Origin: Escherichia coli
Lineage (GTDB): Bacteria; Pseudomonadota; Gammaproteobacteria; Enterobacterales; Enterobacteriaceae
Strand: one strand, 5' to 3'
Length of the DNA stretch: 64,000 bases
Assembly (NCBI RefSeq): GCF_024223415.1
Contig: NZ_CP100500.1
Part shown: piece by piece, positions 45,557-45,724 of the stretch
Layout of the letters: each line of letters begins with the position of its first letter
How positions within the stretch are numbered: the stretch's first letter is position 1
Translations under genes and position numbers: made by a program
The notes under the pieces: model-generated
Database searches by the model: none
Seen by the model: only the letters and a program-made list of their open reading frames with translations
Told to the model about the DNA's origin: nothing

Positions 45557-45560
<4 letters not shown>

Positions 45561-45724
45561 AAGAGTTTTTATTTCACTCCACGGTCAGCGTGATACAAAC
45601 CCGCAAGGCGTTGCAGGCAGCGGGCATGACTTTTCGCGTCAGCGATATTCCCCGTGATTTACGCGGCGGCTGCGGGTTATGCATTTGGCTGACCTGTCCC
45701 CCGGCGAGGAAATACAATGGGTGA
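45557..45724 (+). CDS. Small ORF (55 aa) translationally coupled to yjiL; DUF3343-like (putative Se/S-carrier-like)
   Basis: ATG at 45557 overlaps the yjiL TGA stop (ATGA); hand translation MKEFLFHSTVSVIQTRKALQAAGMTFRVSDIPRDLRGGCGLCIWLTCPPARKYNG; family assignment from memory of the DUF3343 pattern. Confidence 0.45.

Follow-up and report, generated by a model that had tools for sequence, protein, structure and literature searches.

Introduction

Proteins of the DUF3343 family are small, about 80–100 aa, carry a highly conserved cysteine, and have been proposed to act as chaperones in selenium/sulfur trafficking (Lin et al, 2015, PMC5322559). The name Se/S carrier rests on gene-neighbourhood inference; no selenium-specific subfamily was found, and the family also occurs in organisms that lack SelD (Lin et al, PMC5322559). 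Among the STRING neighbours of DUF3343 in Slackia are an activase and a 2-hydroxyglutaryl-CoA dehydratase-like subunit (PMC5322559). In Escherichia coli, YjiM is considered a candidate for a double-cubane [8Fe-9S] protein of class II, with YjiL as the ATPase that drives it (Jeoung and co-workers, PMC7317905), and 955 of 970 high-scoring double-cubane proteins were found in SelD-containing genomes (Haft preprint, bioRxiv 10.1101/2022.07.06.499078).

The reference strain K-12 MG1655 encodes a DUF3343 protein directly after yjiL: ytiA (b4715, YP_009518833.1), an 85-aa 'uncharacterized protein YtiA'. A search of the literature for the E. coli YtiA protein (ytiA, b4715) returned no publication, and papers using the name 'ytiA' dealt for the most part with ribosomal proteins or zinc homeostasis in organisms other than E. 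coli. Here we describe the copy of this gene in a window of 64,000 nt from E. coli (GCF_024223415.1, contig NZ_CP100500.1), the whole stretch of DNA that was analyzed, and compare it with intact and frameshifted alleles from other strains.

Results

The short frame after yjiL is the front part of ytiA

The original prediction placed an unlisted 55-aa ORF immediately after yjiL, resembling DUF3343 and coupled to yjiL as a third operon member. The ATG at 45557, its overlap with the yjiL TGA at 45558–45560 and the 55-codon frame were all found as predicted, and the translation was exact. The following features define this part of the locus:

43632–44783, plus strand: yjiM, 383 aa, HGD-D family, intact
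44793–45560, plus strand: yjiL, 255 aa, activator ATPase of the BcrAD_BadFG type, intact
45545–45560, plus strand: coupling junction, with GAGGA at 45545–45549, ATG at 45557–45559 and the yjiL stop TGA at 45558–45560
45557–45724, plus strand: 55-aa ORF with ATG start, the N-terminal remnant of ytiA, with its stop at 45722–45724

The PGAP name for yjiM is 'double-cubane-cluster-containing anaerobic reductase', and yjiL of the window shows zero differences from that of E. coli O78 strain 3 (L001). The four bases ATGA are shared by the yjiL stop and the start of the ORF (4-nt overlap), a GAGG(A) Shine-Dalgarno-like element lies at 45545–45549, 8 nt 5' of the ATG, and no terminator-like site was predicted between yjiL and the ORF. 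A length of 55 codons is by itself unremarkable, since the ORF listing contains dozens of ORFs of 30–60 aa within the same 7-kb stretch. The ORF was missing from the ORF track only because the track has a cutoff of 60 aa.

The suspected family membership was borne out by an HMM search, in which the 55-aa ORF matched Pfam PF11823 (Se_S_carrier, formerly DUF3343) with E=1.2e-11 and 44.3 bits. Because the match ended at model position 47 (positions 5–47 of 69), it already suggested a truncation. The 55-aa product is short of the full PF11823 domain, the intact orthologues having 78–89 aa, and the 86-aa protein obtained by restoring the missing C scored E=1.1e-12 and 47.6 bits. NCBIfam placed none of the three proteins (truncated, 88 aa and 85 aa) in a family, and a PDB sequence search returned chance-level matches only (E at least 0.04).

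While the frame is real, it does not represent an unrecognized gene but is part of the PGAP-annotated ytiA. Based on a megablast search with positions 45450–45950, the locus DNA is present in 5,385 of 5,426 complete E. coli genomes. In complete E. coli genomes, PGAP labels the stretch 3' of yjiL "ytiA: DUF3343 domain-containing protein" or "putative Se/S carrier protein", and the exact 55-aa product has already been deposited as SRA02936.1, 'Protein of uncharacterised function (DUF3343)', from assembly GCA_900482235.1. The 55-aa ORF is the front part of a known gene and nothing new as a gene. Nor is 55 aa the length of a native protein: the ORF encodes an N-terminal fragment of a gene of 86–88 aa, broken by a frameshift and two further damaging changes. 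The window copy lies on the same strand directly 3' of yjiL with a start/stop overlap, and it lacks the uninterrupted 78–89 codon frame of ytiA orthologues.

The window allele carries three lesions

To delimit the pseudogene, the window sequence was aligned with two intact alleles, that of 88 aa (WP_000657677.1) from E. coli O78 strain 3 and that of 85 aa, and compared with the PGAP annotation of the orthologue. Its parts are as follows:

45557–45816, plus strand: full ytiA-type (DUF3343) pseudogene, from the start codon to the original stop TAG at 45814–45816, with the frameshift inside
45566–45571, plus strand: single TTTTTA unit, present as two tandem units in intact alleles (in-frame 6-bp deletion)
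45587, plus strand: G to A, making codon 11 AGC (Ser); Gly in all 20 aligned homologues (Gly13 in intact numbering)
45698–45702, plus strand: run of five C (C5), six (C6) in intact alleles; the missing C is the frameshifting lesion
45703–45816, plus strand: out-of-frame C-terminal half, reading GEEIQWVIPGQTEAIYCQQGSDWQCVVHYDAEASTRQ up to the stop and identical to the intact 88-aa allele

With one C missing from the run, the reading frame changes after codon 49 and reaches a new stop at 45722–45724. Hence, the product consists of native residues through CIWLTCPP followed by the out-of-frame tail ARKYNG. A tail ending in CPPARKYNG is also present in two database proteins (P0084 and P0095). The C-terminal remnant belongs to a separate 45-aa ORF at 45679–45816. 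The 6-bp deletion shortens the N-terminal LFLFH strand by two residues, in a segment whose residues L5, L7 and F8 do not vary across the aligned family.

The closest intact version of the gene is WP_000657677.1, which is found in O78 strain 3 and in further strains with the same layout. It resembles the window allele in its flanks and in its C-terminal remnant, which is identical, and differs from it by the three lesions (C5, the 6-bp deletion and the Gly-to-Ser change). In comparison with O78 strain 3, there were 3 events in the 267-nt ytiA versus 2 differences in 3,292 nt of flanking sequence, comprising part of yjiN, yjiM, yjiL and the downstream intergenic region. The Poisson probability for such clustering in ytiA, from our own arithmetic on these counts, is about 7e-4, and the clustering is the pattern expected from relaxed selection on an inactivated gene. 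Taken together, ytiA of the window is very probably a strain-lineage pseudogene whose product is most likely non-functional, next to intact yjiM and yjiL.

The MG1655 gene has the same position directly after yjiL, the same 4-nt overlap and the same Pfam family, and its N-terminal 51 codons are nearly identical to those of the window. In contrast to MG1655 ytiA, the window allele is frameshifted, has the 2-residue deletion and the G13S change, and its 3' half is of the divergent 88-aa type. Two allele types of ytiA occur in E. coli, one of 85 aa with yjiK directly after it and one of 88 aa with a pentapeptide-repeat gene inserted downstream, as in the window. Between the 88-aa and 85-aa alleles (L001 and L002), dS was 0.03 for codons 1–51 and about 1.0 from codon 52. 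This jump places a recombination or island boundary inside ytiA, with the breakpoint near 45710–45735, and the boundary of divergence coincides with the presence or absence of the downstream pentapeptide-repeat gene.

In the window, the pentapeptide-repeat gene (46122–48491, plus strand) encodes a 789-aa protein, which in some strains carries the name of the T3SS effector EspX6. It contains tandem arrays of a 6-nt unit (8.3 copies, 46481–46530), an 18-nt unit (9.6 copies, 47642–47813) and a 24-nt unit (10.9 copies, 48125–48385). The protein length varies, with 791 aa in L010, 799 aa in O78 strain 3 and 729 aa in L004.

Intact ytiA is conserved behind yjiM and yjiL

We scanned one genome per species and recovered 53 loci, all from Enterobacterales; the scan reached only this order because the search patterns had been built from an enterobacterial alignment. 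Homologues bearing PF11823 were present in Escherichia, Citrobacter, Klebsiella, Raoultella, Kosakonia, Atlantibacter, Phytobacter and others. The gene yjiL was directly upstream on the same strand in all 53 species loci, and yjiM was present in 52; the contig of the remaining locus begins within yjiL. The start/stop overlap with yjiL was 4 nt in 36 of the 53 loci and 1 nt in 10, and the ytiA ORF was intact, with 78–89 aa, in 50. In Atlantibacter, the three-gene cassette stays together despite different flanks on both sides. Judged by gene arrangement, the order yjiM-yjiL-ytiA is conserved, and the idea of a third operon member was right, although already reflected in public annotation.

In two loci, from a Citrobacter amalonaticus assembly (L070) and Enterobacter sp. 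EA-1 (L071), the DUF3343 ORF had 54 and 69 aa, respectively, and yjiM likewise gave a broken or weak match. These two genomes may have a cassette that is decaying as a whole, or their assemblies may be rich in errors.

The dN/dS values of the homologues relative to the E. coli allele were 0.06–0.3 overall and about 0.2 for the C-terminal half. Intact ytiA is under purifying selection, and the value for the C-terminal half indicates that, in lineages with an intact gene, selection also acts on the part that the window product lacks.

Five representatives of more distant homologues were inspected for their gene context, four of them on uninformative contigs of 1.4 kb or less. The remaining one (P0160, L016 2926–4252) starts 4 nt after a gene for a Sulf_transp (YedE/YeeE-type) transporter. 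Since its neighbour is such a transporter and not a double-cubane gene, the partner is not universal, and the family has more than one context, this second one being likewise related to S/Se.

Predicted structure of YtiA and the conserved cysteine

An AlphaFold2 model calculated from a 20-sequence alignment had a pLDDT of 86.9 and a pTM of 0.78. Its predicted elements are strand 2–8, helix 11–24, strand 28–32, strand 43–49, helix 53–57, strand 63–70 and strand 73–79. All 20 sequences share Cys41 in intact numbering, which is Cys39 in the window product; it is part of the invariant motif DIPRxLRGGCGL, which the model places in the loop between strands 2 and 3. According to the model, the window product would extend from a shortened strand 1 through helix 1, strand 2 and the Cys loop to strand 3, and would lose helix 2 and strands 4–5.

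Foldseek against the PDB found nothing at E≤0.001 and returned only weak matches to ferredoxin-like proteins of the PII/GlnK type, which were used solely for naming the topology. Like PII/GlnK, YtiA has the predicted ferredoxin-like beta-alpha-beta-beta-alpha-beta arrangement with the functional loop between strands 2 and 3 (Foldseek probability 0.96–0.99, TM about 0.5). Its matches to these proteins have an E of only about 0.03 and 10–19% identity, without a sequence relationship; the likeness is a comparison of folds and not a sign of membership.

The published seven-cysteine spacing of double-cubane proteins is CX19CX18-19CX29CX166-170CX32-34CX32C (quoted in PMC7317905). YjiM of the window has 11 cysteines at the same positions as MG1655 YjiM, namely 40, 59, 78, 93, 108, 247, 273, 282, 302, 304 and 335. 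Damage to YjiM as an explanation for its mismatch with the seven-cysteine pattern was rejected, since MG1655 YjiM also fails the pattern and the cysteine positions are identical.

Distribution of the lesions and other readings of the allele

A 65-nt query spanning the C5 run matched 65 of about 5,355 complete E. coli genomes exactly. The carriers of C5 are for the most part laboratory sublines of K-12, namely C600/EC600/CV601 and MC4100/BW2952, and they also include unrelated STEC, ETEC and O145 strains. Its presence in unrelated backgrounds indicates that the change arose repeatedly. PGAP marks the C5 ytiA of MC4100 and of strain 472 as a 'frameshifted' pseudogene. The frameshifted genes of MC4100/BW2952, C600/EC600/CV601 and strain 472 have the same C6-to-C5 deletion in the same run as the window allele, but they keep both TTTTTA units and Gly13. 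Standard K-12 strains therefore include a natural ytiA+/ytiA- pair, with MG1655 intact versus C600/EC600/CV601 and MC4100/BW2952 with C5. The 6-bp deletion is rare, with about 10 complete-genome records matching a 71-nt query over its full length without a gap; an example is an 86-aa CDS in L005. None of the complete E. coli genomes in the collection combined all three lesions.

A change of one base in a run of C is a typical site of sequencing or assembly error, several of the C5 genomes are assemblies of the long-read era, and variants in other frames at the same run exist among database proteins (P0075 and P0091), so the window strain might truly carry an intact 86-aa gene. However, a stretch of 660 nt that covers the gene and its three lesions is identical in one NCBI assembly (GCA_900482235.1) and in three separately assembled runs (Logan assemblies SRR19977205, ERR3437215 and SRR19977217). 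Moreover, the two further changes in the allele are independent and neither is of the homopolymer type, and C5 recurs in dozens of derivatives of C600 and MC4100, each sequenced independently. The recovery of an identical allele from four independent assemblies argues for a real lineage pseudogene, and a homopolymer error is very unlikely. The recurrence of the C6-to-C5 change in unrelated backgrounds (K-12 sublines, STEC, ETEC, O145 and the window lineage), together with the other frame variants at the run, could also be read as the mark of a switch, operating either by C5/C6 phase variation through slippage or by programmed -1 ribosomal frameshifting, as slipping back by one nucleotide on CCC-CCG would bring the ribosome into the original frame and give the full length. 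A run of 5–6 C is, however, shorter than typical contingency tracts, 98.8% of the genomes are not C5, and the C600 and MC4100 sublines pass C5 on stably; the tract was seen only as C5 or C6, with C5 recurrent across lineages. A programmed -1 frameshift site was rejected, as there is neither a slippery X XXY YYZ heptamer (a T precedes the run, giving T CCC CCG) nor downstream structure (the fold of the 88 nt downstream was no better than that of shuffled sequences, z=+0.61). A switch of either kind is scarcely credible for this run.

The 55-aa product could instead be a DUF3343 protein that works in its short form and offers the Cys loop to YjiM/YjiL as before. The start codon, the Shine-Dalgarno element and the ATGA coupling are all intact, and the product keeps the invariant DIPRDLRGGCGLC segment and with it a 44-bit match to PF11823. 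Against this, one helix and two of the five strands of a confidently predicted model are lost, and the lost half, with its dN/dS of about 0.2, is needed in intact lineages. The Gly13Ser change falls on an invariant position, strand 1 is shortened, and the surplus of changes in ytiA fits relaxed selection. We consider a functional short protein improbable, although the elements that it retains, from strand 1 to strand 3 with the Cys loop, may leave the truncated product some residual activity.

Other features of the window

Four tandem Rfam matches to naRNA4 (CssrE) were observed at 1188–1569 on the minus strand, with a spacing of about 101 nt, and a fifth at 9239–9321 on the same strand, 8 kb away. 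The window also contains a SymR antitoxin RNA at 37106–37182 (minus strand, 91.7 bits) and a cluster of three tRNA genes at 9461–9779 (plus strand). Two pairs of long ORFs of about 500–720 aa overlap on opposite strands, 4826–6442 (minus) with 5189–6679 (plus) and 25260–27425 (plus) with 25872–27422 (minus). Each pair probably consists of one real gene and its antisense shadow.

Discussion

As a discovery, the frame after yjiL carries little weight, as the gene is named in K-12, is annotated in thousands of genomes, and has its truncated product already deposited as DUF3343. What the present analysis adds is a corrected reading: the ORF is best taken not for a 55-aa small protein but for a pseudogene, the frameshifted form of a gene of 86–88 aa. 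Like other members of PF11823, YtiA matches the family HMM, has the conserved cysteine, is small when intact, and is encoded next to an activase and a 2-hydroxyacyl-CoA-dehydratase-like gene. In contrast to the family, the window product spans only model positions 5–47 of 69, and the 'carrier' role of the family is itself putative.

Where ytiA is intact, its product of 78–89 aa would start at an ATG or GTG overlapping the yjiL stop and would probably be made by termination-reinitiation coupling. The protein is predicted to form a small ferredoxin-like domain of the topology beta-alpha-beta-beta-alpha-beta-beta. Published comparative genomics suggests that its most likely role would be that of a cysteine-based sulfur/selenium carrier or an accessory partner of the ATP-driven YjiM and its activator YjiL. 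In the window, where C6 has lost one C, six unrelated residues would take the place of helix 2 and strands 4–5. Further damage would come from the Gly-to-Ser change and from the shortening of strand 1 by two residues, and the product is most likely non-functional.

In Enterobacteriaceae, the invariable partner of the double-cubane candidate YjiM/YjiL is a cysteine-bearing DUF3343 protein. Outside Enterobacterales, to which our species scan was confined, the link between double-cubane proteins and DUF3343 rests on the Slackia table of PMC5322559. Two independent lines of comparative genomics tie DUF3343 (PMC5322559) and the double-cubane proteins (bioRxiv 10.1101/2022.07.06.499078) to selenium. 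One could speculate from the tight linkage of the genes across the family and from the purifying selection on ytiA that YtiA/DUF3343 is a third component dedicated to double-cubane reductase systems of class II, which might deliver S/Se to the YjiM cluster or present a cysteine-bound persulfide or perselenide substrate, a proposal that we regard as possible but doubtful. Natural strains that are ytiA-null with yjiML intact (C600 and MC4100, versus MG1655) provide ready material for testing the selenium link. If YtiA is indeed such a third component, the recurrent loss of ytiA through the C-run, with yjiM and yjiL left intact, would mark a condition-dependent or dispensable accessory role.
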